From an uncultured Bacteroides sp. (lineage in GTDB: Bacteria > Bacteroidota > Bacteroidia > Bacteroidales > Muribaculaceae): DNA of 48,867 nucleotides. Numbering within the stretch: position 1 is the stretch's first letter; each line of letters begins with the position of its first letter. The notes under the pieces were generated by a model. It had not been told where the DNA came from. It worked only from the letters and a program-made list of their open reading frames with translations, and searched no databases. The DNA lies in assembly GCA_964531905.1 (NCBI GenBank), contig CAZHHF010000001.1, positions 1 to 48,867 of the forward strand, in the 5' to 3' direction. Below, piece by piece: positions 2,418 to 21,416 of this stretch. A program made the position numbers and the translations under genes.

Positions 2418-3401
2418 TTAGAGAACAACTTTAGAAACTTCGCTGCCCTGACGACGGATGTAGAGACCGTTTGCGGGGTTTTCAACGCGGATACCCTGAA
2501 GGTTGAAGTATTCAACGGGAGCGTTGTTGTCACCGGCGATAACTTCTTCAACACCTGCGAGAACTACAGGTTCCCATCCCGGATGGAGAGTCATGAGACC
2601 GCTGAATTCGATAACATCGCCGGGCATAACGTTGCTAACGGCTACGTCAACGAATTTAGCGCAGTATCCATCAGGCCATTTTGCGTTGTGGGTTTCGTTA
2701 AGTTCGATACAAGCGAGGCTGTTATATGGTGCGCCTGAAGTGATTTCAACATATTCGTTAGCAGGAACATTGTCGAAATCGAAAGCTGCTGTACGCATAA
2801 CGTCACCTAATTCATAGTAACCTCCGGCATTTTTAGCATTGATATTCGGAGTTGAAATATAGCCTTTTACAACGGCACCAGCGGGAGCTTTGATACCGAT
2901 TCTCATACCGGTGCAGTCTTTAAGATATGCACGGTCACCGGTGTAGCTGAGTTCGTTATCGGCATCGTTGATACGATTGGGAGCACCCGGGAGTACGAGG
3001 TGGAAGAGCATGGTTCCGGGAGCGGTGATGTCGGCTACGTCGGGATACTGAGTCTGCGCGGGGATTGTTACAACAACTTTATCGCCAACCATAGTTCCTG
3101 CAACAACAGCACCGTGTAATTTTTCTGCATTTGCTTCGATTTTTGCCTGACGGGGAATAAGGTCGGTCTTGTTACCTTCATAGATCGAGCTTGAAACCAT
3201 TGAGCCGTCGGAATTGATCATCGGCATGGCGAAGTTGGTGTCGAACCAGAGTGTGAGAGCATCAATTGAGGTATTGTTCTCGATTGATGCGTCGATAGCA
3301 TCCTGTGACGGTTTGAAGAAGTAACCGTGGTGAGCCTGTGCGGATGCTCCGAGAGCGACAGCCGCACATGAAACTGAAAGGAGTAAATGTTTAAGATTCA
3401 T
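2418..3401 (-). CDS. Secreted protein of unknown function with a T9SS (Por) C-terminal sorting domain
   Basis: 327 aa. N-terminal signal peptide MNLKHLLLSVSCAAVALGASAQA. The C-terminus VEYFNLQGIRVENPANGLYIRRQGSEVSKVVL fits the type-A T9SS CTD pattern (Y.L.G.RV, then G.YI, then K.V.). I recognise no catalytic motif. Confidence 0.6.
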   Translation of the reverse strand: MNLKHLLLSVSCAAVALGASAQAHHGYFFKPSQDAIDASIENNTSIDALTLWFDTNFAMPMINSDGSMVSSSIYEGNKTDLIPRQAKIEANAEKLHGAVVAGTMVGDKVVVTIPAQTQYPDVADITAPGTMLFHLVLPGAPNRINDADNELSYTGDRAYLKDCTGMRIGIKAPAGAVVKGYISTPNINAKNAGGYYELGDVMRTAAFDFDNVPANEYVEITSGAPYNSLACIELNETHNAKWPDGYCAKFVDVAVSNVMPGDVIEFSGLMTLHPGWEPVVLAGVEEVIAGDNNAPVEYFNLQGIRVENPANGLYIRRQGSEVSKVVL

Positions 3402-3446
3402 GATGATTTTTGATTAAATTGTTAATAATTGGAATATTATGGTTTA

Positions 3447-5612
3447 TTATCTCATGTCGAGCGTAAATTTTTTCGGTCGTGTCATTTCTTCGGTATATAC
3501 GTTTCCGTAGGGGTCGGTAACCTCGATGAAGAGTGTCGATGTTTTTGAGGAGGCCTGCACTGTGAAGAAGTGTGATGTTTTGCTCGGTAGACGGCCCGAA
3601 GTGATGTTTTCGGCCCTATCCTTGTTTTCTCCGTTGTTCAGACACTGGCAAGCATTGGATGCAATATGGAGCGGGTCAAATGCGTTGATGCGTGTAACCT
3701 TCAGCTCTTTGCCCTCCTCGGTGACTTTTATTTTCCAGCGGTTGTCGAATGCGAACACGTTGATGAACACCTTATTGTCGGTACGAGCTTTAGGAGTTGT
3801 GGCTCCATCGGCATAGACTCCTCCCCATTCTTCCATGCAACCGGGTACTTTGGATTCGAAAAGATCATAAGCTTTTTTGTTGCTGCGGGTTGAGTTGGGG
3901 AAGAATACTGATTTACGGATGAAGGTTTCGTTACCGTCGTAGGTACGGAACTGGTAGTTGCGGTCATAACCCATTGATTTGTAGTAATTGGTGTAGGTAG
4001 TGCCATTTACTTCCATTACGAAATATCCACCAACTGAGCCGTCGGCGCAAATATGGTTCTTGGCCATGTGATCCTGTCCGGTGTACCAAAGTGAACCGTT
4101 TACGGCGCCGATATTGTATTCGCGTATCGGTTTCAATTCGGTGCTTGAGTTGGTGTGGGCGTGACCGGTGAGGATGGTGACGTTACTGTAGGTGTTGAGA
4201 CACGGTTTCAGATCGCCGTAGTTTTCAAGACTGTAACCGACCGATGTTACTTGTGAAGATCCGGAAAGTATCGCTTTCTTGAAATAGCGGCAGTGCATAC
4301 ACACGACAAGCGGTGTGGTTTTCGGCACCATAGCGAGGTCTTTTTTCAGCCATTCGATCTGATTGTCGGTGATTCTTTCATCGTATGACCGGTCGCCGAG
4401 TGTACCTATCGAGGCACCTTCGTTACGGTAAACGATATTGTCGAGAACAACATAGTGGATATTGCCTATGTTGAATGAATAGTAGCTCGGTCCGATTTCG
4501 TTACGCCATGTGTTCTCGGCAATGAAGTCACCGGGATAGTACGGGTCGTTGTCATGGTTACCCATGCAGTGGAAAAGTGGAGCGTCGATCATTTCGAAGT
4601 AAGGCTTGGCTGCTCCGAGCGCAAGGTTATAATCATACCAATAAAGATCGTGGGTTTCATCTCCAAGACTGATACAATATACATCTTTGCCTTGTGCCTT
4701 GTAGCCTGCTATGGTTGCGTTCACGTCGGGGATGAAACGCTCGGTGAACTGGCGTGGCGTGTCGCGGATGTTGGCGACATGCATGTCGGCGAGTCCGATA
4801 ACCACGTAGTCGGTATTGTCGTTCTTGAACAGTTCAAAGTTGTGCTGTTCGATTACCGATGCATCTGAGATGGAGAACCGTGAATAAAATTTCGGGAAGT
4901 TCTTGTCGTTCTTAACATTATAGCCTCCGGGAACCGAAACGAACACATAGCTTCGGGTCTTGTCGCTGTTAAGATAGTAGCGTCCATAGGCATCGGTTGT
5001 GGCAACGTTTGTGCCGTCACTGACAACCACACCTTCAACCGGTGTGTCACCGCAATATACAACTCCTTTCACGTTATATCCGTCCTTATCGGGAATATCA
5101 AGGCTGATTCCGCTAATGGTCACGTCAACTTTGACGGGTTCGCTAAGATCGGTGCTGACTTCGCCTTTAGAAGCGCTTACGCGGTAGTGGCATGTGCCTT
5201 TGGATGGTGCTGTATCGAGATATTCGTTTTCGTTTACCGCAGATGCGATACGTGAGTAGATCCGACCGTCGGCTGAACGGTAAACATCGTAAACATTACC
5301 GGCTACAGCATCCCATTTAAGTGAGACGCCGTTCTGCACAGATTCAGCACGGAGATTGGCCGGACCATCGTCAAGATCAATGACATCCATATAGTCAATC
5401 TCTCCGATGTTGTAAGAATAGGCCGGAATACCTAAACTATAGAAGTTCACTGCTTTTACCGAGCCATTATCTTCCACTTTGGTGCAGTCAATTGTGGCCG
5501 CGTCAAACGAGTTGACGATTTCTCCGCTTTTGAAGATCTGAAGTGCTGTTCTGGCTGTCGCTCCGCTGATCGCAAAGGCAGTAAGGATTGATATGATCAG
5601 GAATCTTTTCAT
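3447..5612 (-). CDS. Secreted calcineurin-like metallophosphoesterase with an extra N-terminal FN3-like module and a CarboxypepD_reg-like domain
   Basis: 721 aa with signal peptide MKRFLIISILTAFAISGATA. FN3-like stretch NLRAESVQNGVSLKWDAVAGNVYDVYRSADG. Regulatory-like domain VKGVVYCGDTPVEGVVVSDGTNVATTDAYGRYYL. Metallophosphatase motifs GLADMHV, SLGDETHD, MGNHDND, LTGHAHTN. It is a paralog of the 6140-7960 gene. Confidence 0.8.
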   Translation of the reverse strand: MKRFLIISILTAFAISGATARTALQIFKSGEIVNSFDAATIDCTKVEDNGSVKAVNFYSLGIPAYSYNIGEIDYMDVIDLDDGPANLRAESVQNGVSLKWDAVAGNVYDVYRSADGRIYSRIASAVNENEYLDTAPSKGTCHYRVSASKGEVSTDLSEPVKVDVTISGISLDIPDKDGYNVKGVVYCGDTPVEGVVVSDGTNVATTDAYGRYYLNSDKTRSYVFVSVPGGYNVKNDKNFPKFYSRFSISDASVIEQHNFELFKNDNTDYVVIGLADMHVANIRDTPRQFTERFIPDVNATIAGYKAQGKDVYCISLGDETHDLYWYDYNLALGAAKPYFEMIDAPLFHCMGNHDNDPYYPGDFIAENTWRNEIGPSYYSFNIGNIHYVVLDNIVYRNEGASIGTLGDRSYDERITDNQIEWLKKDLAMVPKTTPLVVCMHCRYFKKAILSGSSQVTSVGYSLENYGDLKPCLNTYSNVTILTGHAHTNSSTELKPIREYNIGAVNGSLWYTGQDHMAKNHICADGSVGGYFVMEVNGTTYTNYYKSMGYDRNYQFRTYDGNETFIRKSVFFPNSTRSNKKAYDLFESKVPGCMEEWGGVYADGATTPKARTDNKVFINVFAFDNRWKIKVTEEGKELKVTRINAFDPLHIASNACQCLNNGENKDRAENITSGRLPSKTSHFFTVQASSKTSTLFIEVTDPYGNVYTEEMTRPKKFTLDMR

Positions 5613-5632
5613 GATTGGTATACCTTTGTTGT

Positions 5633-6121
5633 TTAACGGACTATGAATTTAACAGTGTGGCGGTCGTTGCTGTCGGTCGTTGTGGCGAAGTATATTCCTT
5701 CAGGGAGTCCATTTATTGTCAGAATACCATCAGGATCAAATCTTTTTGAAATGATCTGTGATCCTTTAGCATCGTAGACTGTACAAATGAACGCTTCGGG
5801 ATTTGCTGCACTCAGTTTTAGGCTGCCATTAATATATTTCAGCACCGGCCTATCATCGCTAACGGCTGTTATCGAACTCTGGAGCTGAGTAACGCGGATG
5901 ACGTTATAGGTTGAATATGCCCATGTGACAGGTTGTATATCCGTATTGGTGCGAGAACCTACTGACATGTAGTTAGTATTGAAATATACTCTGTTGCGAG
6001 TTGACAGAGGGTATTCCACTGCTTCGCCGTTCCCTTCGAGACGTATCGAAGGTTCCGTGGCCTTGATATCGGCTACGGTAGCTAAAGCTATTAGTGATGC
6101 CAGTACTATTGATTTATACAT
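5633..6121 (-). CDS. Small secreted protein consisting of little more than a signal peptide and a T9SS C-terminal sorting domain
   Basis: 162 aa with signal peptide MYKSIVLASLIALATVADIKA. C-terminal FICTVYDAKGSQIISKRFDPDGILTINGLPEGIYFATTTDSNDRHTVKFIVR fits the T9SS CTD pattern. The gene is tightly packed, with 18-20 nt gaps to the two metallophosphoesterase paralogs on either side. Confidence 0.55.
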   Translation of the reverse strand: MYKSIVLASLIALATVADIKATEPSIRLEGNGEAVEYPLSTRNRVYFNTNYMSVGSRTNTDIQPVTWAYSTYNVIRVTQLQSSITAVSDDRPVLKYINGSLKLSAANPEAFICTVYDAKGSQIISKRFDPDGILTINGLPEGIYFATTTDSNDRHTVKFIVR

Positions 6122-6139
6122 GAGTTAACTGAGTGAGTA

Positions 6140-7960
6140 TTATTTCATACTTGTGGAGAATTCTTTCGGACGGGTCATTTCTTCGGTGTAGACAACGTTA
6201 TCGGCATCGGTTACCTTGATGGTAAGCTTAGATGTGGCTGATGACGCCTGCACACGGAAGAAGTGTGCGGTAAGGCTCGGCAAACGACCTGAAGTTATGC
6301 TTTCTTCCTTGCTTGCGTCGGCGCCGTTGTCGAGGCATTTGCAAGCCAATGAAATGATATGCAGCGGGTCATAGGCGTTCATACGGATAACATCGAGTTT
6401 TTTACCGTTTTCGGTAACTTCGATTTTCCAACGATCGTCCCATCCGAATACGTTTATGAATACCATATTATCGGTACGTGCTTTGGGAGTCGTAGCTCCA
6501 TCGGCATAAACTCCGCCCCATTCTTCCATACAGCCGTAGTTTCCGTTGCTGGGATCATTAGCCTTTTCGTTGAAGAGGTCGTAAACCTTTTTGTTGCTAT
6601 ATGACGATGCCGCATTAGGGAAATGTTTGGTCTTTCTGATGAAGGTCGTGTTACCGTCATAAGTTCGGAACTGATAGTTCTTATCGTATCCCATGCTCTT
6701 GTAGTAGTGGGTGTAGTTATTACCCTGTATATCCATCACGAAGTATCCTCCTACCGATCCGTCGCCACAGATATGATTCTTGGCCATGTGATCCTGACCG
6801 GTGTACCATAGTGAACCGTTAACGGCTCCGATATTATATTCGCGTATGTTTCCTTCGCCGGTGCTTGAGTTAGTGTGGGCATGGCCTGAAAGGATTGTTA
6901 CATTACTGAATCCGGACACACAATTCTTTAGATCTTTATAATTTTCAAGAGTGTAGCGTATTCTCGGTTTCTGGGGATCGGGATCTTTGTCGTAAAGTTT
7001 GGCCTTGTTGAAATATGACGCGTGCATGGCAATGACGAGGGGTGCGGTTTTATCAACAGCCGCGAGATCTTTTTTGAGCCATTCGAGCTGTTCGGACGTT
7101 ACTTTGAGATCATATTCGCGGTCACCGATCTTGCCTTGTGTTCCACCATTGTTTATGTAGACGATATTGTCAAGGACAACATAGTGGAACTTACCGATAT
7201 TGAATGAGTAGTAGCTCGGTCCCATTTCTTTGCGCCATGTGTTTTCGGCAAGGAAATCATCGGGACAGTACGGGTCATTGTCATGATTACCCATACATTG
7301 AAAAAGAGGAGCGTTTATTTTTTCAATATAAGGTTTGATGGCTCCAAGTGCGAGGTTATAGTTGTACCAATACAGATCGTGGCTTTCGTCACCGAGACTG
7401 AGACAGTAAACATCTTTGCCCTGCGCTTTGTATTCGGCGATGGTAGCATTTACGTCGGGGATGAATCTTTCGGTGAACTGTTTTGGGGTGTTGCGTATGT
7501 TGGCCACATGCATATCGGCGAGTCCGAGAATAACGTAATTATCCTTATCGGTTTTCGTCAGTTCGAAATTGTGCTGCTCGGTTACCGATTCGTCGGCTGT
7601 GCTGAACTTGGAAAAGAACTGCGGATAGATTTTATCGGTTTTGACTTTGTAGCCCGAGGGAATTGAAACGAAAACGTATTCACGCTTTTTATTACTGTTG
7701 AGATAGTAGCGTCCGTTAACATCAGTTTTCACTACTGATGTGCCATCGCTGACAACGGCGCCCTCAACAGGCTCGTTTCCGCAGTAAACGACTCCTTTCA
7801 CGTTATTCCCGGCTTTATCGGGAATATCGAGGATAAGTTTATCTCCCGGTTCTTCTACTGGAGGAGTCGTCGGGACATCGGGAATATCTTTTTTTGAGTC
7901 ACCGCAGGCGTTTAGTATAAGAGCGGCGGCAAAAGGTATGAAAAGTTTCTGTAGATTCAT
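6140..7960 (-). CDS. Calcineurin-like metallophosphoesterase, probable lipoprotein
   Basis: 606 aa. N-terminus MNLQKLFIPFAAALILNACGD is a lipobox-like signal ending in Cys. Motifs: VKGVVYCGNEPVEGAVVSDGTSVVKTDVNGRYYL, GLADMHV, SLGDESHD, MGNHDND, LSGHAHTN. Long identical runs are shared with the 3447-5612 protein. Confidence 0.8.
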   Translation of the reverse strand: MNLQKLFIPFAAALILNACGDSKKDIPDVPTTPPVEEPGDKLILDIPDKAGNNVKGVVYCGNEPVEGAVVSDGTSVVKTDVNGRYYLNSNKKREYVFVSIPSGYKVKTDKIYPQFFSKFSTADESVTEQHNFELTKTDKDNYVILGLADMHVANIRNTPKQFTERFIPDVNATIAEYKAQGKDVYCLSLGDESHDLYWYNYNLALGAIKPYIEKINAPLFQCMGNHDNDPYCPDDFLAENTWRKEMGPSYYSFNIGKFHYVVLDNIVYINNGGTQGKIGDREYDLKVTSEQLEWLKKDLAAVDKTAPLVIAMHASYFNKAKLYDKDPDPQKPRIRYTLENYKDLKNCVSGFSNVTILSGHAHTNSSTGEGNIREYNIGAVNGSLWYTGQDHMAKNHICGDGSVGGYFVMDIQGNNYTHYYKSMGYDKNYQFRTYDGNTTFIRKTKHFPNAASSYSNKKVYDLFNEKANDPSNGNYGCMEEWGGVYADGATTPKARTDNMVFINVFGWDDRWKIEVTENGKKLDVIRMNAYDPLHIISLACKCLDNGADASKEESITSGRLPSLTAHFFRVQASSATSKLTIKVTDADNVVYTEEMTRPKEFSTSMK

Positions 7961-7985: not shown

Positions 7986-9668
7986 TTATACTTCATCGGG
8001 CATAGCAACGAGTTTACCGGTAGCGCGTACGGTAGGCATCGGTGCATTCCATCCACGGAGTTTATCTCCGAGTTCCTTTGCCATATTTTTTACCATTTCA
8101 GGGTGTTTCGAAGCAATGTTGTTGTGTTCTCCGAGATCATCTTTAAGGTTATATAGCTCAAGTTCGCCGGTGTGCATTCGATAAACGAGCTTATAATCTC
8201 CGCGACGCAGCGCACTCATGAAGTCGATATCGTCCTGATCCTCGAAACGGAGCTGGTGGGGATAATGGAATACGAGCGGACGAGTAGCATCAAGACCGGA
8301 AACCTCAATAGGTATCTCAAATGCATTTGCTTCTTTCTGATTGTTTATTTTTCCGTTTTTCTTTGCTTCAGCCACGTATTGAGAACCATCGGTGATGAGT
8401 TTTACGATTGAGTTTCCGTCGCGTGTCTGTACAGTCTGTGGATTTTCAACTCCTGCAAGTTCGCAGAAAGTAGGGAATAAGTCTTCGGTAACGACCGGAG
8501 TGTTGATTCGGGTATCGGGTGCGACTTTTCCAGGCCAGCAAACCATCATCGGGACGCGGATACCTCCTTCATAGACCGATCCTTTTCCTTCGCGCAGAGG
8601 AAGAGCCTGTGTGTGCAGTTCGCCACCTTTTTCACCTCCGACGCTGTGGGGACCGTTATCGCTGTAGAAGATGATGATAGTGTTGTCGGCGATACCTTTT
8701 TCTTCAACGAAGTCGAGTACTTCGCCGAGACTCTTATCCATTCCTTCGACCATAGAAGCATAACGTGCTTCTCCTTCATCGTAGCCTGCGTCAATATATT
8801 TCTGATAGAAACGCACGTCGCGCTGTATCGGAGTATGGTTGGTGTAATGAGCGAAATAGAGGAAGAACGGTATGTTTTGTTTTATTGGATGTTCAAGCGT
8901 TTTCAATGCTTCGCGAGTGATTGCATCGGTCAGATGCACGCCACTTGCATAATATTGCGACATGTTCTGTACTGATCCGTAGTCACCTTGACCAGGGAGA
9001 TTGCCGAAGTTGTCCTCGGGCTGATAGCTTTTCGGGTGTCCGTTCTGCGCACCGGCGATGTTGACAACGAATCCCATATTGTAGGGATTGCTTCCCGGAG
9101 TTCCCGCAGGCGCCCAGTGAGCTTTGCCGACGTGGATCGTGTGATAACCTGAATCACGTAGCAACTGAGGCATCGGAGTGGCATAGAGTGTGTTGTTGAG
9201 ACCATAAGTCTTGCGGTCTTCCTCATTGTCGAACTGTGCAGGGCAGAGAGCGTTGTAGTTCCATTTCGGGTGAGCGAAGATGTCATCGAGATTCTCGTTG
9301 GTGGCACCCGGATGTCCGCCGATAGCATCGGGAACGATATCTTTGTAGAGTGAACTGAACGAGGTGATACCCATGTGTGCCGAGTTCATTCCGGTCATAA
9401 GGCATGTACGTGTAGGAGTTGAAAGTGAACATGCGTATGCGTTGGTGAGCATGACACCTTTTTTGGCAAGGCGTTCCATGTTGGGAGTGTGGAACATTTT
9501 GTTGCGCGGGTAGGTCTCTTCACCGAACGGGAGTGAGGTTTCTGTCCAACCGTAGTCATCTACGAGGAAAAAGATGATATTTGGCCGTTGCTGTTGCGCA
9601 TAGGCTTGCATAGTCATTGCGAGCGGAGCTGCCAATGCTATATTCCGGAATGTATTCTGTAGTTTCAT
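7986..9668 (-). CDS. Sulfatase-family enzyme (alkaline-phosphatase superfamily), Ser-type formylglycine motif
   Basis: 560 aa with signal peptide ending AYAQQ. N-terminal metal-binding block NIIFFLVDDYGW. The active-site signature LSTPTRTCLMTGM aligns to (C/S)xPxR...LxTG with Ser at the modified position. Also present: HVGKAHW and IIFYSDNGP blocks. Confidence 0.8.
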   Translation of the reverse strand: MKLQNTFRNIALAAPLAMTMQAYAQQQRPNIIFFLVDDYGWTETSLPFGEETYPRNKMFHTPNMERLAKKGVMLTNAYACSLSTPTRTCLMTGMNSAHMGITSFSSLYKDIVPDAIGGHPGATNENLDDIFAHPKWNYNALCPAQFDNEEDRKTYGLNNTLYATPMPQLLRDSGYHTIHVGKAHWAPAGTPGSNPYNMGFVVNIAGAQNGHPKSYQPEDNFGNLPGQGDYGSVQNMSQYYASGVHLTDAITREALKTLEHPIKQNIPFFLYFAHYTNHTPIQRDVRFYQKYIDAGYDEGEARYASMVEGMDKSLGEVLDFVEEKGIADNTIIIFYSDNGPHSVGGEKGGELHTQALPLREGKGSVYEGGIRVPMMVCWPGKVAPDTRINTPVVTEDLFPTFCELAGVENPQTVQTRDGNSIVKLITDGSQYVAEAKKNGKINNQKEANAFEIPIEVSGLDATRPLVFHYPHQLRFEDQDDIDFMSALRRGDYKLVYRMHTGELELYNLKDDLGEHNNIASKHPEMVKNMAKELGDKLRGWNAPMPTVRATGKLVAMPDEV

Positions 9669-12708: not shown

Positions 12709-13971
12709 TCAGTTACAATAATATGGACCGTTGACGGTTTTCACGGTGTAGGAATCGTTGGTGTCGTCAAGCGAATAAACATAGAATTCTTTTCCCCCCG
12801 GAACAACGCGGATTACTATATGACCTTCCTTTGCAGGCATTTTATTGGTGTTGGGATATGCCACATATTTGGTTGCCTTGTGGAAATTTGTAGAATATAC
12901 ATCCTTGATCTTGCCGGGATAGGCTTTCACTTTCGACTGTATGCGGCGCAGAACCTCAATGTCGGGTTGTTGAGCTTTGGCATTGTGTACCACGATTACT
13001 TGCGGTCGGAGACCTTTAAGGATGTCAACGCCCATCGCATCGTAGTTCATGTGATGATTACTCTTCATTGCCTCGACAGGTCCTGCCACGGCGCCTACAG
13101 GAAGTTCGATGTTTTGCCAATCGTGAGTGGTTACCGAAGGAAGGTCACCGCCGGTGAAGTAATCAAACGGTCCGTAAGATACGCGGAATGCGATAGAACA
13201 TTCGTTTTCATCGGGCCAGTCCGACTTGTTGGGCAGATATTTCGTGGGAATAAAATGATCGCGTGTCACATCGGCTACGCCTGTCCATACAACTCCGTTG
13301 GCTGCAATGTTGCGTACTTCAAATTCGGGATACTTTTCAGGATTGTGTGTAAGTACGATCTGATCGTTCTTGCCCACGTTGAAGCACTCGATCTCGGTTC
13401 CTTTGTTCTCCTTATGCCATTTGATGAAGTTAAGATAGTTGGGGAACGCGAGGCTCACAGGTTCAATAGGGAGTTTATAATCGGGCCACGCTCTGTCGAT
13501 GACTTTTTTGAACGGAATAGTTTCACCTACGCCTGCCAGTCCGGTCAGTTTGTAGGCTCCTGTTTTCGATTCGGGCATACCCTCATAGACATCTCCCATG
13601 TGATCCATGTGGAAGTGAGTCAGGAGCATATAGTCGAGTTCACGGTTACCTGTTCCTTCGAGAAAATGCTGAATATACTTTGTGTATGTTTCGTAAGGAG
13701 CTGTTTTGGCATCAGGTTTCGGATCCACAAGATTCGGGCCTTTACTTTTCGACTCTCCGGCGTCGACAAGCATGGTTGTCCCGTCGGGGAAAATCATGAA
13801 CGTACATTCGCCTCGACCGGTGTTCACTGCATGAATGTCGAGGTAACCGTCGGTCCAGGAAGGTAACGGTTTCCCCACTTCGGCTTTCTGAGCCGAAGCG
13901 CAGAGTACGGCAGTTGTTGCGATGGCTACAGTGATTATGCTTTTAGCGAATTTCATAATGCAGTCGATCAT
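12709..13971 (-). CDS. Secreted metallo-beta-lactamase-fold hydrolase
   Basis: 420 aa with the HxHxDH motif LLTHFHMDHMGD. The ATG at 13971 overlaps the upstream stop (ATGA). An in-frame ATG at 13956 gives a cleaner signal peptide (MKFAKSIITVAIATTAVLCASAQ) and may be the true start. Confidence 0.75.
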   Translation of the reverse strand: MIDCIMKFAKSIITVAIATTAVLCASAQKAEVGKPLPSWTDGYLDIHAVNTGRGECTFMIFPDGTTMLVDAGESKSKGPNLVDPKPDAKTAPYETYTKYIQHFLEGTGNRELDYMLLTHFHMDHMGDVYEGMPESKTGAYKLTGLAGVGETIPFKKVIDRAWPDYKLPIEPVSLAFPNYLNFIKWHKENKGTEIECFNVGKNDQIVLTHNPEKYPEFEVRNIAANGVVWTGVADVTRDHFIPTKYLPNKSDWPDENECSIAFRVSYGPFDYFTGGDLPSVTTHDWQNIELPVGAVAGPVEAMKSNHHMNYDAMGVDILKGLRPQVIVVHNAKAQQPDIEVLRRIQSKVKAYPGKIKDVYSTNFHKATKYVAYPNTNKMPAKEGHIVIRVVPGGKEFYVYSLDDTNDSYTVKTVNGPYYCN

Positions 13972-15365: not shown

Positions 15366-16493
15366 TTAATATTTAATCAGTTTCAATCGCAGATTCTTTA
15401 CTGTCGCTTTGTCGCCGGCAGCAGCGATAGAGAACTGTGGAATTTCATTGTAAATTACTACCTGATGTTTCCCTTTTGGAGCATCGGTGTTTTTGAACGT
15501 CTGTTTTCCAAGTGTTATTTCGGCGTCTCCTTCAATGTCGAAGTCGAGGTAGAGTCCCCCGAAATAAACCGGTTCATTATATTGACCCAGTACCAGACGG
15601 GAGCCGGGGGTAATTTCCAGATCGGATATCTGCATCAGTATCTCGCCTTCGCTGTCGTTGTCGGGGGCGAGAAAGTCGGTTGACACAACGTCGATTCCGT
15701 TGCGGTTTATCAGGTTGAACTGCGGGAATTTATCGCTGTGTGATTCGGTGAGAAGATTATGTTGTCGCGATAACGCGACGTTTTCAGTGTATTTATCGGG
15801 TGTGAAACGTGTTGTGCTGATAGCCATGATCACGTTTCCAAGCCGGTTGATCCGGTCAAATGTCGTTTGATATAGGATACCCATCAACGGAACATCCTTG
15901 ATTGCGAGAGAATCTCGGATGATATCATTTGCATCGTTATTTGAAGTGACGATGTAGTTTCCGCGGCCTAATATCGCATCGGCTTCTTTTATTATGCCCT
16001 GCAGGAAGCTTTCCATTTTGGCTTCCTCAACTTTTTTAGGCTCGATGAAAACAATCAGCCCGTTGCGTCGACATTCAAGCAGATATTCATGAAGAGAGGG
16101 TATTTTTGATTGATTTTCAGGAGCATCGGCCTTGAGCTTATAATTGCTCTGCAACTCTTTCCATGTAAGATCGGCAACCGGGATAGGTTCGCTGATTTTC
16201 TGCCCGTCGGCTGTAAGACATGTTCGTTTCAGAGTAGCATCGTGCATTACAACTAATGAATCGTCGGCCGACAGACGCACATCGGTTTCAATCGCATCGA
16301 ATCCGGCACGTTTGGCAAGGCGGATAGCTTCAATGGAATTCTCTCCGGCTATAGTCGATTTCAGGTCAACTCCACGGTGGGCGATAAAAATGCGTTTACC
16401 GCTGATGGAATCGAGCAGTGACGAAGCCATAGCGGAATTGCAGCAGAGAGAGATCAGAAGCAGTTTTGCAAAAAACGATGTGATGCGGTTCAT
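15366..16493 (-). CDS. Secreted glycerophosphodiester phosphodiesterase (GDPD) with an extra C-terminal domain
   Basis: 375 aa with signal peptide MNRITSFFAKLLLISLCCNSAMA. GDPD blocks IAHRG, ENSIEAI, GFDAIETDVRLSADDSLVVMHD, collinear with GlpQ/UgpQ. About 110 additional residues follow the catalytic barrel. Confidence 0.8.
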   Translation of the reverse strand: MNRITSFFAKLLLISLCCNSAMASSLLDSISGKRIFIAHRGVDLKSTIAGENSIEAIRLAKRAGFDAIETDVRLSADDSLVVMHDATLKRTCLTADGQKISEPIPVADLTWKELQSNYKLKADAPENQSKIPSLHEYLLECRRNGLIVFIEPKKVEEAKMESFLQGIIKEADAILGRGNYIVTSNNDANDIIRDSLAIKDVPLMGILYQTTFDRINRLGNVIMAISTTRFTPDKYTENVALSRQHNLLTESHSDKFPQFNLINRNGIDVVSTDFLAPDNDSEGEILMQISDLEITPGSRLVLGQYNEPVYFGGLYLDFDIEGDAEITLGKQTFKNTDAPKGKHQVVIYNEIPQFSIAAAGDKATVKNLRLKLIKY

Positions 16494-16543: not shown

Positions 16544-16555
16544 TATGGTAGTGAA

Positions 16556-18286
16556 TTAATATCCCTCGTTCTGTTTAAGGTTCTTGTTGATTACAAGTTC
16601 TTTGGCGGGAATAGGCCAGAGATACATGCGCTCGCTGAAGTTTCCTTTAGAGTGGACTTCGCATAATTGAGCATCGATAAGTTTCTGGAAATCGGGGATA
16701 CAGTCGTCATCGATTTCGGGAGCATATTCCCAGAACCAGTGGCCATCGGTTTCGATCTTTTTCGCTTTGGTCTTGTTGGCGATGAGACCGCAGTTTGGTT
16801 TGTTGAAAGCTTTCTCGGCGATTCTCCAACGGATGCAGTCATAATAACGGAGACACTCGAAAGCGAGTTCCACGCGGCGTTCGCGACGGATAACCTTGCG
16901 GAGTTCTTTCTGGTCCTTGCTTGTGATGGCAGGGTATTTGCTGACTTCGCCAACCTGACATTTGTAAGCGCGGGCGCGAACTTTGTTGATTGCATCAAGA
17001 ACTGAATCGTCGATCTTGTTCTGCTCGATCATTGCTTCGGCGTAGATCAGGTAAACATCGGCCAGACGGATTATCACATTGTCGTTGGTCGCTTTTTTCA
17101 AACCGGTACACCATTCGATTTCAGTACGTTTCTTCCATACGAGACCGTTGTAAGATGCATTGGCGTTACCAACAGGATAGCTATCGATGTTCGGTACCAT
17201 TTTATTCTGATTATAGTCCATTACTTTAGTTGCTGACGGACGAGGATCGAATACGACACCGAGATTAGTGCTGCCGAATTCAATAAGTGTTTCGGCACAA
17301 CGCGGGTCACGGTTTTTGAAAGGATTCTTAGGATCGAACAGCGGTGATTCATCAATAGGAAGACCATCGGTACATTCAAATGCTGCGAGGATCGCCCATG
17401 ACGGACCTTTTGAAGCAGTACCGCCGGCGAGACGCGGGCAGTAAGAGCTTGCCGAGCTGAACGGCGCGTTTGATGCGTAAAGTTCGAGGTTATCGGAGTT
17501 GGGAGTCAGGAAGATTGACTCGGCATCGTTGCGGGCGTGGAAATACTCACCGAAGTCGGGATGGAGACGGTAGATTCCTTTATCAGCGAGAGCCATACAT
17601 TCTTTAGCTGCTTCAGCAGCTACATCCCAGTCTTCAAACCAGAGGGCGAAACGCGCTTTCAGAGCGAGAGCGGCACCTTTGGTGGCAGTGCGGTAGGCAG
17701 AGTTCTTTTCAGGAAGATTCTCGATCGCGAAATCGAAGTCCTCATAGATTTTCTTGATGATCTCGGCTTTCGGAGTCTGTGACATGGTGTACGACTCTTC
17801 GATAGTTGTTGCGTTTTCAACATAGACAACATCTCCGAAGTGGAAAACGAGCATACCATAGTGATAAGCGCGGGTGAATCGGGCCTGAGCTTCGTAATCG
17901 AGGAGTTTAGTCTCGTTGATTCCGTGTTCGCGACCACGGTCCATGTTGGCGATGATTGTGTTGGCGCGAACGATCGCCTTGTAAAGGTTGGTGTAGGTGG
18001 TCTGAAGCTGTAGATAACCTTTTATGTCGCTTTCACTGTTGAGTGTTCCGTCAACGATCGGTTGTCCGGCAACCTTGCGGTAAAAGTAGTCGTCGTTCCA
18101 TGCTTCCTGACCGAGATCCCACCATACGGGGCGATATATGTCAGCCACTGCGAGATCATACTCTGTTTCGGAAGAGAACCAGGTCTCGCTTGAACCCTGG
18201 TCGAGCGGATAGCGGTCAAGATCGATACATGATACCGATGTGAAGGCCAAAGCCAGAGCCGGTAATATATGTTTGATATTTTTCAT
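16556..18286 (-). CDS. SusD/RagB-family nutrient-binding outer-membrane lipoprotein
   Basis: 576 aa. Lipoprotein signal ALALAFTSVSCIDLD. It starts 13 nt downstream of a SusC-type gene. SusD-like C-terminal blocks RERRVELAFECLRYYDCIRW and LKQNEGY. Confidence 0.85.
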   Translation of the reverse strand: MKNIKHILPALALAFTSVSCIDLDRYPLDQGSSETWFSSETEYDLAVADIYRPVWWDLGQEAWNDDYFYRKVAGQPIVDGTLNSESDIKGYLQLQTTYTNLYKAIVRANTIIANMDRGREHGINETKLLDYEAQARFTRAYHYGMLVFHFGDVVYVENATTIEESYTMSQTPKAEIIKKIYEDFDFAIENLPEKNSAYRTATKGAALALKARFALWFEDWDVAAEAAKECMALADKGIYRLHPDFGEYFHARNDAESIFLTPNSDNLELYASNAPFSSASSYCPRLAGGTASKGPSWAILAAFECTDGLPIDESPLFDPKNPFKNRDPRCAETLIEFGSTNLGVVFDPRPSATKVMDYNQNKMVPNIDSYPVGNANASYNGLVWKKRTEIEWCTGLKKATNDNVIIRLADVYLIYAEAMIEQNKIDDSVLDAINKVRARAYKCQVGEVSKYPAITSKDQKELRKVIRRERRVELAFECLRYYDCIRWRIAEKAFNKPNCGLIANKTKAKKIETDGHWFWEYAPEIDDDCIPDFQKLIDAQLCEVHSKGNFSERMYLWPIPAKELVINKNLKQNEGY

Positions 18287-18299
18287 TGTTGTATTCTGT

Positions 18300-21200
18300 T
18301 TAGAAGTTAACGTTCAGACCGAATATTACCGATTTGGTGATAGGATAGCTCGAAGTCGTACGTTCGGGATCGTATCCGGTCGGGTAGTCATTGATAGTGA
18401 AGAGGTCGTTACCGCTCACGTAAACGCGTACACGGTCGATGTAGGCCTTACGGGTCCATTTCTGCGGCAGGGTGTAGCCGAGAGTGATGTTTTTCATACG
18501 GAAGTAACGTCCGTTGAACATCCAGAAAGTAGACATAGCATTGTTTACGTCCTTGTTGGTGGTAGTAAGACGCGGGTAGCGTGCTTTGGCGTTCTCTTCA
18601 TCGGTGTTTAGTGAACTCCAGTAGTTGCCGTCGAGGATACCCGGGATTGAACCCCATTTTCCGCGATACGGTTGAACCATTGACTCGGTCATACGAACAT
18701 TCTGAGAACCGATTCCCTGGAATGCCATGCTAAGGTCGATACCTTTCCATTGTGCGTTGATGGTTCCGCCATAGAGGTAACGGGGGAGTGAGTTGCCAAG
18801 TAGAGTCTGGTCATATTCGGGTGAGATCACACCGTCGGGTACACCGTCGGGTCCGGAAATATCTTTGAATTTGACGTCACCAACTTTGGTGGTTGCGTTC
18901 AGTTTCGGAGAATTGTCGAGATCTTCCTGAGTAAGGAAAAGTCCGTCGGCAACGTAACCGTACCATTCATTATAGTAGCTGCCCTTGCGGCTTGTCTTTT
19001 CACCGGTGAACTGAGTTCCTTTAAGATCACCCATTTTCGAAATATAATCCGAGAAGTTTACGGCAACGCTGTAGGTGAAATCACCGATACGGTCGTTCCA
19101 GCTCAGCTCGAGGTCATAACCGGTTGTATTCATGCGTCCGGCGTTCTGGTCGGGGTTGGAGTAACCAAGATACTTCGGAATTTCAAGCGCGAGGAGCATG
19201 TCTTTGGTATATTTCTTATAGAAGTCGCCGGTGAATGACAGACGGTTATTGAAGAAGCGAGCATCAACACCGATATCGAAGCTTTCGGTTGTTTCCCAGG
19301 TAATGTTCTTGATAGCGTAAGAGATCTGGGCTGCACCCTGACGGAATTCAACTTCGTTTTTCGCATTGTAAAGAAGTGATTTGGTGAAGTCCATCAGTGA
19401 GATATAGGGATAGTTACCGATACGGTCATTACCGAGCTGTCCCCATGATCCGCGGATTTTAAGGAATGTAAGCGCTGCCGGATTGATGTTCTGCATGAAT
19501 TTCTCCTGTGAGAGAACCCATCCTAAAGATACCGAGGGGAATGTTCCGATACGGTGTTTTTGGTGGAATCGTGAAGACTGGTCGTCACGGATATTGAATT
19601 GCAGGAGGTAACGGTTGTCGTAGCTATAGACTACGCGGCCGAATACAGAACGGTAGGCATTCTCATAGGCAGTTCCGCCAACACCCAGATAATCTTTGTT
19701 TGCGACAGAAAGGTATGGGTAGGTGTCAAGAGCCATATTGTTAGTTGATGCCGACTGCGATTCATGGAAATAGTAGTACGTTTCATAACCTGCCATGAGG
19801 TTCACATCATGTTTACCGAATGTGTTGTTGTAGTTGGCCAGGAGCTGGGTTGTAAGACGTTTTGCATCAGCACGTTCCTCTTCAAGGTTGTTGGTGGTGT
19901 AGTCGCTAAGATATCCTGCGATTGTAAGAGGATCATCCTGACGGTAGTATGGCACTTTCTTAGTGAAAGTCTTTGTTTTTGTGAAAGTGAGCTGCGGAGC
20001 CACGATTGCCGAAAGCTTCAGACCTTTGAACGGAGTGACGAAGATTGAGAATTTACCTGCGGCTTTAAGTGTGGCTGCGTTGATATCACCGCCTTCGGTA
20101 AGTTTTCCGTAAGGGTTCGATCCGTCTTTAACGTCACCCATAGTGCCGTTCTGCCAGCGGTGAGCGTAAGCGGGCGATGCATTGTAGATACCGCTCCATA
20201 CTGTTGTGAATTTCGGCTTTTCGGTTTCGCTGTAGATTACGTTGATGTCGGCGTTGGCACCGATATACTTGTTGAAGGTGAAGTCATTGTTGGTGCGTAC
20301 CATGTAACGCTGATAGGTATTCTTGGCTTCCTTGAACAGACCGTCGGTCTTGTCATAGCTGAGGGTAACGCGTGTTTTTACTTTCTTGGAGCCTCCGGTG
20401 AGGTTGATTACGTGTGACTGGCGGGGTGCAGAACCTTTGATCATAAGATCATACCAGTCGGTGATAGGATAGTTGTCGGGATCCTCAGCGTTGCGTGCGA
20501 CCCAGTTGGCAACCTGATCCTCAGTATAGATCTGATACCATCCTCCCGAAGGATTGTCATTGTAATGAAGCTCGTTGACCATCTCGAGGTAGCGCTGCAT
20601 TCCAACGTTTGTCGGCTGTGAAGCGGGTATTTCGAGACCGTATTCGAAGTTATATGTGAGTTTGATGTCGCTTTCACTCGCGCGTTTGGTAGTGATAAGG
20701 ATAACACCGGCAGCAGCACGTGAACCGTAGATAGCGGCTGAAGCTGCGTCTTTAAGCACCGAGATGCTTTCCACATCGTTGTTGTTGATGTTGTCGATAT
20801 TGTCGGTAGGCACACCATCGACGATAATAAGCGGAGACGCGTCACCGATTGTTGTCACACCACGGATTAGAATGTCGCTTGAACTTGCTCCCGGCTGACC
20901 GTTGGAACGGGTTACCTGGACACCGGCGATAGCACCCTGGAGAGCTGTAGCGAGTTTGGTGGTGTGGCGCTCAGCAACTTTTTCACCCTTAAGATTTGAT
21001 ACTGCTCCGGTAAGGTCTTTTTTCTTGATCGTACCATAGCCGATAACGACAACCTCATCAAGGAGTTCGGTGTCGCTGACAAGAGTAAAATCATATTTAT
21101 TGGACTCGCCAACGGTAGTTTCCTGAGATTTGTAACCGATGAAGCTGACAACCAGTACATCTCCTTTTGATGCTTTGAGAGAGTAATTACCGTCGATATT

Positions 21201-21416
21201 GGTCATGGTGCCGTTCGACGTGTTTTTGATTTTAACAGTCGCGCCGATTATAGGCTCGCCCTCATTGTCAATCACAGTACCTGTGATATCCTTGACATCA
21301 GGCGGTAATTGGCTTGCGAGGCCGCTTAAGGAGCAGCATAGCAGCCCTATAAGCAGTAGGACTGCACGGCTTGCCGACATCGTCCTTTTCAGCAATTTGT
21401 CAATAGTTGAATGCAT
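18300..21416 (-). CDS. SusC/RagA-family TonB-dependent outer-membrane transporter
   Basis: 1038 aa. CarboxypepD_reg-like N-domain ITGTVIDNEGEPIIGATVKIKNTSNGTMTNIDGNYSL. Plug/TonB-box region LDEVVVIGYGTIKKKDLTGAVS. C-terminal beta-strand ending FGLNVNF. An alternative start is the ATG at 21380 (MSASRAV...). No STN/anti-sigma extension is present. Confidence 0.9.
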   Translation of the reverse strand: MHSTIDKLLKRTMSASRAVLLLIGLLCCSLSGLASQLPPDVKDITGTVIDNEGEPIIGATVKIKNTSNGTMTNIDGNYSLKASKGDVLVVSFIGYKSQETTVGESNKYDFTLVSDTELLDEVVVIGYGTIKKKDLTGAVSNLKGEKVAERHTTKLATALQGAIAGVQVTRSNGQPGASSSDILIRGVTTIGDASPLIIVDGVPTDNIDNINNNDVESISVLKDAASAAIYGSRAAAGVILITTKRASESDIKLTYNFEYGLEIPASQPTNVGMQRYLEMVNELHYNDNPSGGWYQIYTEDQVANWVARNAEDPDNYPITDWYDLMIKGSAPRQSHVINLTGGSKKVKTRVTLSYDKTDGLFKEAKNTYQRYMVRTNNDFTFNKYIGANADINVIYSETEKPKFTTVWSGIYNASPAYAHRWQNGTMGDVKDGSNPYGKLTEGGDINAATLKAAGKFSIFVTPFKGLKLSAIVAPQLTFTKTKTFTKKVPYYRQDDPLTIAGYLSDYTTNNLEEERADAKRLTTQLLANYNNTFGKHDVNLMAGYETYYYFHESQSASTNNMALDTYPYLSVANKDYLGVGGTAYENAYRSVFGRVVYSYDNRYLLQFNIRDDQSSRFHQKHRIGTFPSVSLGWVLSQEKFMQNINPAALTFLKIRGSWGQLGNDRIGNYPYISLMDFTKSLLYNAKNEVEFRQGAAQISYAIKNITWETTESFDIGVDARFFNNRLSFTGDFYKKYTKDMLLALEIPKYLGYSNPDQNAGRMNTTGYDLELSWNDRIGDFTYSVAVNFSDYISKMGDLKGTQFTGEKTSRKGSYYNEWYGYVADGLFLTQEDLDNSPKLNATTKVGDVKFKDISGPDGVPDGVISPEYDQTLLGNSLPRYLYGGTINAQWKGIDLSMAFQGIGSQNVRMTESMVQPYRGKWGSIPGILDGNYWSSLNTDEENAKARYPRLTTTNKDVNNAMSTFWMFNGRYFRMKNITLGYTLPQKWTRKAYIDRVRVYVSGNDLFTINDYPTGYDPERTTSSYPITKSVIFGLNVNF

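Follow-up and report, generated by a model that had tools for sequence, protein, structure and literature searches.

The window considered here is a stretch of 48,867 nucleotides (nt) from an uncultured Bacteroides sp. of the Muribaculaceae lineage (assembly GCA_964531905.1, contig CAZHHF010000001.1), and its minus strand carries, between positions 2418 and 21416, an operon in which a SusC/SusD transporter pair (SusCD) is encoded together with predicted phosphoesterases, a sulfatase and acetylesterases. The 12 co-directional genes that a first-pass annotation, made from the letters alone, had placed here agree exactly in their coordinates with the list of open reading frames (ORFs), and the gaps that separate them are, in operon order, 13, 62, 24, -4, 11, 116, 33, 25, 18, 20 and 45 nt; the negative value is an overlap between the genes for an FAD-dependent oxidoreductase and a hydrolase of the metallo-beta-lactamase (MBL) fold, and turns into a gap of +11 nt if the MBL protein starts at its second Met, at 13956. 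As assigned by Pfam, the row begins with SusC (CarbopepD_reg_2 plus Plug), SusD, GDPD, FAD_oxidored (PF12831) and Lactamase_B, and continues with two SASA proteins, a Sulfatase, two proteins of the MetallophosN/Metallophos/MetallophosC type and one protein whose Por_Secre_tail match lies below the cut-off of that family. All of the motifs quoted in the first-pass annotation were recovered in the translations (IAHRG and ETDV..HD; HFHMDHMGD; GQSNM, twice; GLADMHV, GNHD and GHAHTN, in both metallophosphoesterases), and its gene set stands as well; its order at the 3' end, which listed both metallophosphoesterases ahead of two proteins tailed for the type IX secretion system (T9SS), has to be replaced by metallophosphoesterase MP606, a 162-aa T9SS protein, metallophosphoesterase MP721 and a 327-aa protein.

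A canonical polysaccharide-utilization locus (PUL) combines adjacent susC and susD genes with at least one glycoside hydrolase (GH) or polysaccharide lyase (PL) and with a hybrid two-component system (HTCS) or an extracytoplasmic function (ECF) sigma/anti-sigma pair. Here, the susC-susD pair is present, with 13 nt between the two genes. Searches with Pfam and NCBIfam, on the other hand, gave zero matches to GH or PL families for 12/12 operon proteins, so that the earlier impression of a glycosidase-free operon holds, and none for 15/15 co-directional genes of the extended unit delimited below; as to regulators, neither an HTCS nor an ECF/anti-sigma pair accompanies the genes, the only adjacent regulator is of the LacI family, and SusC has no STN domain. 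Because the SASA esterases are carbohydrate esterases, the operon should be called GH/PL-free rather than CAZyme-free.

The hairpins by which the first-pass annotation had bracketed the operon are both real, but only one of them has the look of a terminator. The hairpin at 2341-2378 (minus strand; dG -26.6 kcal/mol, z -6.1), which is followed by UUUUUU, is a strong intrinsic terminator at the operon end, whereas the GC-rich hairpin in the phoA-susC gap at 21573-21624 (minus strand; 11-bp GC stem, dG -22.6 kcal/mol, z -4.8) need not terminate transcription, because its loop measures 30 nt and no U-run follows. Both were scored by RNA folding; a consensus terminator scan overlooked them, their loops being longer than 8 nt. 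The functional unit comprises more than the 12 genes and reaches 25028, or 26360 with the divergent regulator, adding phoA, pfkB, adh and lacI. This arrangement is not a product of chance, because its synteny is kept in a set of related loci (L001-3, L005, L091, L092 and L094 in our numbering of such loci, in which L001-L003 and L092/L094 are near-identical copies). Directly behind the terminator lies a rha operon (window 1-2198, minus strand) with rhamnulokinase at 732-2198 and the start of L-rhamnose isomerase from about 710 down to 1; the same adjacency exists in L091, and the link may be positional only. Rhamnulokinase was considered as a member of the unit and rejected, as it stands behind a strong terminator and is the first gene of the rha operon.

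The transporter pair consists of a SusC-type TonB-dependent transporter (18300-21416, minus strand), assigned by Pfam, and a SusD-type lipoprotein lid (16556-18286, minus strand; Pfam SusD_RagB plus SusD-like_3). The operon SusC is 46-52% identical to the SusC proteins of four related loci outside the gut-type set (L047, L085, L087 and L019) versus 27-32% to the three other SusC proteins of the window, and the operon SusD is 42-44% identical to its counterparts in the same four loci versus about 25% to the window paralogs. Because identity across loci exceeds that to paralogs of the same window, SusCD appears to have been inherited together with a core of flavoprotein, dehydrogenase and PfkB kinase that will be described further below.

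Five predicted enzymes of the unit are phosphoesterases. The secreted MBL-fold hydrolase (12709-13971, minus strand; Pfam Lactamase_B) is a putative phosphodiesterase of Pce/ComEC-like type: its HxHxDH motif, HFHMDH in this protein, is invariant in 26 homologs, as in the binuclear-metal MBL enzymes of the Pce type, and searches of the PDB with the sequence and with the family profile returned only Pce/CbpE (1.5e-8) and the ComEC nuclease domain (4e-5). No Pce-type choline-binding repeats were found in the protein by Pfam. The Pce analogy seems the best available, though remote. The family is large, with 1453 matches at E <= 1e-5 and carriers in more than 580 genomes of Bacteroidota, Verrucomicrobiota, Acidobacteriota, Planctomycetota, Proteobacteria and others; an exact-match look-up of the window protein in public assemblies, with either start codon, returned nothing, and the closest MBL protein is 73% identical. 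The second enzyme, a secreted 'long' GDPD phosphodiesterase (15366-16493, minus strand), matches positions 1-143 of the 244 in the Pfam GDPD profile (PF03009) at E 2.3e-22, has a signal peptide and extends some 150-180 aa past the matched region at its C-terminus; the HR, EN, ExD and HD elements of the family are all in the translation, as IAHRG, GENS, ETDV and MHD, and homologs from Opitutaceae that adjoin an MBL gene are 46-51% identical to it. Two MetallophosN/Metallophos/MetallophosC phosphoesterases follow, both assigned by Pfam and motifs. MP606 (6140-7960, minus strand) is a lipoprotein with the lipobox LNAC-GDSKKD, and may be surface-exposed, given the acidic residues after the lipobox; a homolog that is 44% identical occurs in a Niabella locus (L087). 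MP721 (3447-5612, minus strand) is 71% identical to MP606 and has a 170-aa N-terminal extension, Fn3-like by eye. Finally, the gene upstream of susC encodes a secreted PhoA-type alkaline phosphatase (21661-23100, minus strand; Pfam Alk_phosphatase E 4.5e-67), whose translation holds a signal peptide and the DSAAS nucleophile motif, and which is syntenic in L001-3, L005, L091, L092 and L094. Signal peptides, as read from the translations, are present on the hydrolases, PhoA, SusC and SusD and absent from the flavoprotein, the dehydrogenase and the kinase.

These last three proteins are the predicted cytoplasmic part of the system. The first, adh (23985-25028, minus strand; Pfam ADH_N plus ADH_zinc_N), encodes a Zn-dependent, sorbitol-dehydrogenase-like polyol dehydrogenase (ADH), with PDB matches to 5vm2 (E 2e-95), to the ketose reductase 1e3j (4.5e-95) and to the sheep and human sorbitol dehydrogenases 3qe3 and 1pl6 (~1e-86). 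The second, pfkB (23102-23971, minus strand; Pfam PfkB), encodes a fructokinase-like sugar kinase that matches 2qhp, deposited as 'Fructokinase', at E 1.6e-121, ribokinase models scoring lower. Taken together, a sorbitol-dehydrogenase-like ADH and a fructokinase-like kinase would make up the classical hexitol route to fructose-6-phosphate. The third is the FAD-dependent oxidoreductase of family PF12831 (13968-15341, minus strand; Pfam E 2.5e-108), which has no signal peptide and is 61-91% identical to homologs in loci of Bacteroidales, Sphingobacteriales and Chitinophagales; a literature search on PF12831 turned up no functional paper.

Divergent from adh stands lacI (25335-26360, plus strand; Pfam LacI plus Peripla_BP_1/3), whose best NCBIfam match, to the RbsR-like ribose-utilisation repressor, falls below the cut-off, and which is found at the homologous place in L091, L047, L087 and the Opitutaceae loci. 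A repeat search of the lacI-adh intergenic region revealed three exact direct copies of GCAACCGTTC at 25131-25171, a candidate operator; they span 41 bp and are the sole three exact copies in the window. The triple repeat is kept in the equivalent intergenic region of L091 though the flanks have diverged, and its core, AACCGTT, would seem to resemble the AANCGNTT core of cre/LacI-family operators. The search for a palindromic operator of LacI found none and turned up the direct triple repeat instead, and no ECF/anti-sigma or Pho regulator is encoded at the operon locus in the window.

What do these features have in common beyond their proximity? An answer is suggested by loci of other bacteria, in which part of the unit recurs while the rest varies. 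A locus of Parapedobacter (L047) reads LacI-SusC-SusD-GDPD-FAD-MBL-SSF-ADH-PfkB; L085 reads ECF/FecR-MBL-SusC(STN)-SusD-FAD-ADH-PfkB-MBL-SSF; a locus of Dysgonomonadaceae (L007) reads SusCD-(540-aa unknown)-MBL-FAD-MBL-SSF-ADH; and in Niabella (L087/88) the order is LacI-mannitol dehydrogenase-fn3 protein-SusCD-MFS-Metallophos-FAD-NAGPA-MetallophosN/C-RibBA-EEP-ADH-EEP-PfkB. Four loci of Opitutaceae or Lacunisphaera hold LacI and MBL genes with a long GDPD-TonB receptor-(Metallophos)-MFS cluster nearby, with an ADH and a distant PF12831 protein as further neighbours; L089 combines an ABC importer with a cytoplasmic RNaseZ/PhnP-like MBL protein, a flavoprotein and an ADH; and in L093 the flavoprotein is linked to ABC permeases. 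A Zn-ADH gene lies beside the flavoprotein ortholog in nearly all related loci, and PfkB is found in L047, L085, L087 and the gut-type loci. From this gene content, the core appears to comprise SusCD (or a TonB receptor or ABC importer), the PF12831 flavoprotein, the Zn-ADH, in most cases PfkB, a transporter of the inner membrane, and control by LacI or ECF. It is always joined to phosphodiesterases, the kinds of which are interchangeable (Pce/ComEC-like MBL, long GDPD, metallophosphoesterases, EEP or NAGPA), and the constant, phosphodiesterase-type hydrolase is predicted to sit outside the cytoplasm, or inside it where an ABC system imports. In the core-type loci that were examined, glycosidases did not recur as neighbours. 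The chemistry that the first-pass annotation had proposed, depolymerization by phosphodiester hydrolysis, thereby gains support from two sides: from the MBL-Pce/ComEC matches and the intact catalytic motifs of the GDPD protein and the metallophosphoesterases, and from related loci that swap in EEP, NAGPA or other Metallophos enzymes and in which glycosidases do not recur.

Several versions of these loci have peculiarities of their own. In Niabella, a RibBA gene (L087 14715-15926) stands between MetallophosN/C and EEP; its product (DHBP synthase/GTP cyclohydrolase II) consumes ribulose-5-phosphate, and the presence of the gene might indicate that a pentulose phosphate is formed or that flavin is supplied to the PF12831 enzyme. 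Because the same locus adds an NAGPA-type phosphodiester glycosidase, glycosyl-1-phosphate linkages are suggested. In the ECF-regulated version L019, a gene for an Nramp-type divalent-metal transporter (1233-2495) lies directly upstream of the MBL gene, and may supply metal to the binuclear hydrolase. An unusual local expansion is seen in L038 (7103-13932), from the termite-gut verrucomicrobium Ereboglobus sp., where five MBL paralogs stand in tandem after a gene of MetallophosN/C-like type and two genes for PF12831 flavoproteins. The MBL family also belongs to a different conserved module, found in L004, L008-L013, L017, L022, L041 and others (Prolixibacteraceae, Draconibacterium and related bacteria), together with one or two GH92 mannosidases, a 318-aa Metallophos protein, a short 280-aa GDPD protein, BNR, PIG-L or YhhN proteins and members of two further families, some 570 and 617 aa long. 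This module looks like a set that degrades phosphomannan or mannosyl-inositol-phosphate structures, resembling those of glycosylphosphatidylinositol (GPI), mannosyl inositol phosphorylceramide (MIPC) or phosphatidylinositol mannosides (PIM).

Synteny with the window is near-complete in the metagenome-assembled genomes (MAGs) of Bacteroidales that contain L001-3, L005, L092 and L094. This gut-type row runs adh, pfkB, phoA, susC, susD, GDPD, FAD, MBL, SSF, SASA, sulfatase (adh was seen in L001-3 and L092/L094, and MBL was not seen in L092), and in L001-3 it continues with Metallophos, a homolog of the 327-aa protein and a radical-SAM/SPASM sulfatase maturase (anSME). A metagenome scan with a flavoprotein profile returned mostly paralogs of 30-38% identity and five usable orthologous loci. 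The closest relative, L091, has a flavoprotein that is 91% identical and keeps adh, pfkB, phoA, GDPD, FAD, SASA, sulfatase and MP606; it lacks susD and the MBL gene, and of SusC and MetallophosC it retains remnants of 126 aa (8420-8800) and 129 aa (18195-18584), so that its import part is in apparent decay. Because these import genes have been lost or reduced to remnants, the locus seems dispensable in some strains. The sulfatase, SASA, PhoA, MetallophosN/C and T9SS proteins are lineage-specific additions.

Among these additions, the sulfatase (7986-9668, minus strand) is a formylglycine (FGly) carbohydrate sulfatase of the S1_16 type, with the Ser-type motif STPTR, the metal-binding DD in LVDDYGW, and PDB matches to 6USS (E 1.5e-130), 7OZA (E 8.8e-130; presumably BT3796) and 7OZ9 (E 1.2e-84), the high similarity to the latter two being part of what places it in S1_16. 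These two structures were deposited with a paper that characterised BT3796 and BT3057, two S1_16 enzymes, as sulfatases acting on 4S-Gal/GalNAc and reported that W109 is needed for this activity, although Phe or Tyr could theoretically substitute. In the window protein a Phe (..ITSFS..), followed by an insertion of some 25 aa, aligns with a Trp of 7OZA (..VTNWT..), the only Trp nearby and, to judge from its position, probably the stacking W109 of BT3057/BT3796. In L001, the row of genes that holds the sulfatase ends, two genes further on, with the anSME gene. The idea that the sulfatase fold might here handle phosphodiesters is not borne out, given the maturase and a genuine S1_16 enzyme at ~1e-130 to 6USS and 7OZA; as a candidate phosphodiesterase, this protein is ruled out by those matches to solved sulfatases. 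Two SASA/SGNH carbohydrate O-acetylesterases with GQSNM motifs (Pfam SASA), esterase 1 (11255-12697) and esterase 2 (9702-11138), both on the minus strand, are paralogs of 53% identity, and SASA matches to the carbohydrate or sialate O-acetylesterases 9ega, 9h4u and 7kmm have E values of 1e-73 to 1e-83. Esterase 2 corresponds to the copy kept in L001 and L005 (62-65% identity), where the slot of esterase 1 is filled by the SSF transporter. The sulfatase and acetylesterases would imply that the gut version meets a sulfated, O-acetylated sugar of the Gal/GalNAc type.

The remaining two operon proteins are candidates for display by the T9SS. The 162-aa protein (5633-6121, minus strand) carries a T9SS type-A C-terminal sorting domain, the mark of T9SS cargo (TIGR04183/PF18962), with 29.1 bits to TIGR04183 against a cut-off of 23. 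The 327-aa protein (2418-3401, minus strand) gave no Pfam or NCBIfam match, sorting-domain profiles included; it has about 25 full-length homologs, proteins of Muribaculaceae MAGs among them, and homologs at the equivalent position in L001 and L091. Its AlphaFold2 (AF2) model (pLDDT 87.5) describes a secreted beta-sandwich resembling a carbohydrate-binding module (CBM), which makes it a candidate surface binding protein: the better-fitting Foldseek matches were of the CBM29/30/11/70 type and weak (E ~3e-3 to 1e-2, target-normalised TM 0.43-0.53), and a GH catalytic fold was not among the matches. Its last ~45 residues, which form a separate small beta unit in the model, recur at 65-90% identity at the C-termini of numerous proteins that are unrelated in other respects, several of them from Muribaculaceae or Duncaniella, in the manner of a T9SS-type tail. 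These matches also place the organism of the window, a mouse-gut-type, Muribaculaceae-like bacterium of the Bacteroidales.

How might all of these parts work together? The reading that we favour, and to which we would give an even chance, is that 2341-26360 is one catabolic system, probably LacI-controlled, in which SusCD imports a phosphodiester-linked carbohydrate or polyol that is dismantled by ester hydrolases alone. The surface lipoprotein MP606, aided by T9SS-displayed binding proteins, would cut the substrate into importable pieces, which SusCD would take up; within the periplasm, cleavage of phosphodiesters would fall to the MBL enzyme of Pce/ComEC-like type, to the long GDPD enzyme and to MP721, and PhoA would take off terminal phosphate, while in the gut lineage the two O-acetylesterases and the S1_16 sulfatase would remove decorations. 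The freed polyol or sugar would then reach the cytoplasm, in the sister loci via the SSF symporter, and would be oxidized by the sorbitol-dehydrogenase-like Zn-ADH and the PF12831 flavoprotein and phosphorylated by the fructokinase-like PfkB before entering glycolysis. Gene content, motifs, synteny, the recurring core and the predicted localisation signals are observed; we infer the order of these steps, the phosphodiesterase activity of the MBL enzyme and the class of substrate. Use of a phosphodiester-linked polyol or sugar as carbon is favoured over pure phosphate scavenging because the core recurs with varied phosphodiesterases; a carbon-catabolic logic follows from what stays constant, namely an importer, a phosphodiesterase, a symporter, two cytoplasmic dehydrogenases, a sugar kinase and a sugar-type repressor. 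Such a logic would suit a compound in which phosphodiesters are the sole bonds that have to be cut, either a polymer built of polyol or sugar phosphates or a small diester that joins two alcohols. Foremost among the candidates stand polymers of the polyol-phosphate or glycosyl-phosphate kind (teichoic-acid- or capsule-like), and in second place come head groups of inositol-phosphoglycan or phospholipid type.

A number of observations weigh against this reading. The triple repeat precedes adh and has no copy before susC, so that co-regulation of susC with adh depends on read-through of the hairpin at 21573-21624. The similarity between the MBL enzyme and Pce is weak and limited to two short metal-binding stretches. 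The AF2 model of the flavoprotein gave only generic two-domain FAD folds in Foldseek (geranylgeranyl reductase, halogenases, fumarate reductases), with TM below 0.45, which allows no functional inference. Because the ADH proteins of distant loci have diverged (30-39% identity to that of the window) and are Tdh-like in NCBIfam, the term 'polyol' may not hold for all versions of the locus. The SSF transporter of the sister loci is not encoded in the window. Moreover, a sulfated, acetylated, Gal/GalNAc-containing glycan would normally need glycosidases, and an EEP-GH3 fusion and a GH127 protein of a neighbouring PUL, 10 kb upstream, could supply them.

That fusion, a 1131-aa protein (31757-35152, minus strand), consists of an N-terminal EEP domain, GH3, an Fn3-like domain and a C-terminal CarboxypepD_reg domain; the same fusion adjoins lacI in L091. 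As it joins a glycosidase to a phosphodiesterase-type domain (EEP stands for endonuclease/exonuclease/phosphatase), it may act on glycosyl-phosphodiesters and could be functionally linked to the operon. The neighbouring PUL itself (35149-48309, minus strand) is a separate one, with two tandem SusCD pairs (34% and 35% identical to each other), DUF4959 and a GH127-like gene that overlaps the EEP-GH3 gene by 4 nt. Between lacI and these genes, on the plus strand, is another SusCD pair, missing from L091, whose SusC (region 26613-29857) begins at the Plug domain with a GTG at 26975; an ORF resembling a signal peptide (26613-26708) lies upstream in a different frame, which points to a frameshift or decay at the 5' end of the gene, or else to an error in sequencing.

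Four alternatives deserve consideration, and the one that survives best is a special case of the reading just favoured, namely that the substrate is a teichoic-acid-like or capsular poly(polyol phosphate) or poly(glycosyl phosphate) of Gram-positive neighbours, which GDPD, MBL and the metallophosphoesterases would depolymerize, PhoA freeing the polyol for conversion to a ketose and phosphorylation. In this specific form we regard it as possible but rather doubtful. It would account well for the enzymes, given that Pce and ComEC are the sole solved relatives of the MBL protein, that the catalytic residues of GDPD are intact, that ADH and PfkB suit a hexitol, and that the Niabella version holds a mannitol dehydrogenase together with the NAGPA 'phosphodiester glycosidase', GHs being non-recurrent in the core-type loci. 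Even the rhamnose catabolic operon directly downstream could be accommodated; streptococci and enterococci possess rhamnose wall polysaccharides that bear glucitol-phosphate or ribitol-phosphate. It accounts less well for the decorations and the details: classical teichoic acids are unsulfated, yet the gut-type locus has the S1_16 sulfatase and its anSME as fixed members; neither a D-alanyl esterase nor PhoD could be recognised; ribitol and glycerol routes normally use other kinases; and literature searches on SusCD- or PUL-mediated use of teichoic acid found nothing specific.

Unlikely, though still second among these alternatives, is a carbon-oriented analogue of the PusCD systems, acting on inositol-phosphate head groups or inositol-phosphoglycans from plant glycosyl inositol phosphorylceramide (GIPC), fungal (M)IPC, or phosphatidylinositol (PI) and GPI lipids. 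The enzyme classes of PusCD loci are present in the window (GDPD, two calcineurin-like phosphoesterases, one of them a lipoprotein, and PhoA), and GDPD falls within the PI-PLC-like superfamily, as the domain name cd08577 indicates (10.64898/2026.09.03.749221). In other phyla the company that the MBL family keeps, with GH92, short GDPD, Metallophos and PIG-L, has the look of a mannosyl-inositol-phosphate signature, and GIPC glycans carry pentoses and deoxyhexose, to be set beside the GH127, GH3-EEP and rha genes that neighbour the unit (PMC11496612). Yet no inositol catabolic (iol-type) genes exist in the window, ADH and PfkB look like a sorbitol dehydrogenase and a fructokinase, and in sequence searches of the PDB the metallophosphoesterases matched no sphingomyelinase-like enzyme; Pus loci, furthermore, are ECF-regulated and serve phosphorus nutrition, as opposed to LacI here, and the sulfatase would go unexplained.

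Slightly less probable again is that the operon is an accessory PUL, which strips decorations from a glycan of host or diet that is sulfated and O-acetylated (for instance 4-sulfated Gal/GalNAc or acetylated sialic acid), with glycosidases encoded elsewhere and the phosphoesterases in a minor role. The sulfatase and SASA proteins do closely resemble solved structures (~1e-130 to 7OZA; 1e-73 to 1e-83 to O-acetylesterases), GH3 and GH127 PUL genes lie upstream, and the 52% of susC/D loci without CAZymes may rely on remote ones (PMC6499787). However, core loci of other orders have neither sulfatase nor SASA and nevertheless keep orthologous SusCD, flavoprotein, ADH and PfkB, which argues that the ligand of the transporter is set by the core and not by these accessories; in addition, phosphoesterases account for 5/13 predicted enzymes of the unit. 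The least probable of the four, a Pho-type (Pus-like) locus for scavenging organic phosphorus, or a SusCD locus directed at nucleic acids, either of which would serve phosphate rather than carbon nutrition, can point to PhoA and four phosphodiesterase-type enzymes linked to SusCD, to the Pus systems established in Flavobacterium (PMC8115612) and to the nucleic-acid target suggested for 576 CAZyme-free susC/D loci with PF00149 or PF01663 (PMC6499787), but is weakened, including in the pure scavenging form that the first-pass annotation had kept as its alternative, by a LacI regulator with a conserved operator-like triple repeat in place of PhoBR or an ECF pair, by conserved cytoplasmic polyol/ketose dehydrogenase and sugar kinase genes that would be superfluous for phosphate, by the restriction of PhoA to the gut-type variant, and by the absence from the unit of any nuclease, nucleoside hydrolase or nucleoside phosphorylase.

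The favoured reading, a carbon-catabolic system for a phosphodiester-linked substrate, has precedents that it resembles only in part. In Flavobacterium johnsoniae, PusCD1/2 import inositol monophosphate (IP1) and glycerophosphoinositol (GroPI) (10.64898/2026.09.03.749221), and their loci encode a PI-PLC, a calcineurin-like protein homologous to the GIPC-PLC of Botrytis, and PhoA fused to GDPD (10.64898/2026.09.03.749221; PMC11496612). As in PusCD loci, SusCD stands here beside a GDPD-superfamily protein, calcineurin-like phosphodiesterases and a PhoA-type phosphatase rather than glycosidases (PMC8115612), and the combination of SusCD with phosphatases and phosphodiesterases and few CAZymes that marks Pus loci is found in the form of PhoA, GDPD, MBL and the two Metallophos enzymes. 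In contrast to Pus systems, which are induced by phosphate depletion and have ECF sigma/anti-sigma pairs, the operon has LacI and a SusC without STN, is fused to ADH, flavoprotein and PfkB genes, and adds the MBL enzyme, acetylesterases and sulfatase. A wider frame is provided by the survey of 28,250 susC/D loci, 52% of which are GH-free (PMC6499787); among those without CAZymes, sulfatases and peptidases, 576 hold phosphodiesterases and were not analysed further there (Lapebie et al. 2019, PMC6499787). With the CAZyme-free loci of PULDB the operon shares susC/D, enzymes of the PF00149 or PF01663 class and the lack of GH and PL (PMC6499787); unlike those 576 loci, it is equipped with a sulfatase, with esterases for carbohydrates and with a cytoplasmic pathway that is conserved.

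Individual enzymes have precedents too. GlpQ of Bacillus subtilis and Staphylococcus aureus (PMC7086022) and pneumococcal Pce/CbpE share the two folds of the GDPD and MBL proteins, in which the catalytic motifs are present; the MBL similarity to Pce/ComEC is remote and partial, however (E 1e-5 to 1e-8), the MBL protein has no choline-binding repeats, and the GDPD protein is longer, with an extra C-terminal domain, and works in a Gram-negative host with TonB-dependent import. The Rus systems likewise combine SusCD, PfkB, a LacI-type regulator and highly variable hydrolases (Glowacki et al., 10.1101/574913), and the uncharacterised rus-like types listed there include FAD oxidoreductase, GDPD, fructokinase, cpdA-type phosphodiesterase, sialate O-acetylesterase and ADH (10.1101/574913). 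Membership of Rus was rejected, as the unit has no RusT permease, nucleoside hydrolase or RusR and its PfkB is fructokinase-like; the Niabella and Parapedobacter loci of Rus Table S5 differ from those found here (10.1101/574913). The xanthosan system of Xanthomonas (XanT plus XanP; PMC12807533) resembles the operon in its TonB-dependent uptake of a sugar phosphodiester, cleavage by a phosphodiesterase and use for carbon nutrition, and differs in that XanP is a 2H phosphoesterase, the substrate is an effector-made cyclic Gal-phosphate dimer, and SusD is missing; its enzymes have no homology to those of the operon, the GDPD relation of AvrBs2 excepted. GH-free SusCD loci with phosphodiesterases, and PusCD systems, are thus already known. 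What would be new, judging by the genes, is a conserved module in which orthologous SusCD and exchangeable phosphodiesterases are linked, under LacI, to the catabolism of carbon compounds, and a gut variant of it extended by sulfatase and esterases.

A further step, which is tentative and clearly less probable than the favoured reading itself, would be to see in the flavoprotein, Zn-ADH (and PfkB), importer and phosphodiesterase an undescribed pathway for a common environmental phosphodiester, composed of two alcohols or, as in fragments of teichoic acid, of repeating polyol-phosphate units; the Bacteroidota would have recruited a dedicated SusCD pair to it, which would then be the first SusCD system to take up a non-glycosidic phosphodiester-linked polymer as carbon, and the gut Muribaculaceae-type version would have been extended to a sulfated, O-acetylated form of the substrate. 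Such a pathway may be widespread in Bacteroidota, with related loci in Verrucomicrobiota and one ABC-importer genome.

About half of all SusCD loci lack a glycosidase, their substrates being mostly unknown, and the operon offers a concrete, testable example of them, one in which a transporter, a flavoprotein/dehydrogenase/kinase trio and interchangeable phosphodiesterases travel together across the orders of the Bacteroidota. If a teichoic-acid-like or phospho-inositol glycan is used for carbon, this would be a new route by which gut and soil Bacteroidota recycle phosphodiester polymers of cell envelopes and, if true, it would provide the first functions for the MBL family of more than 580 genomes, for the PF12831 flavoprotein clade and for the MetallophosN/C proteins.

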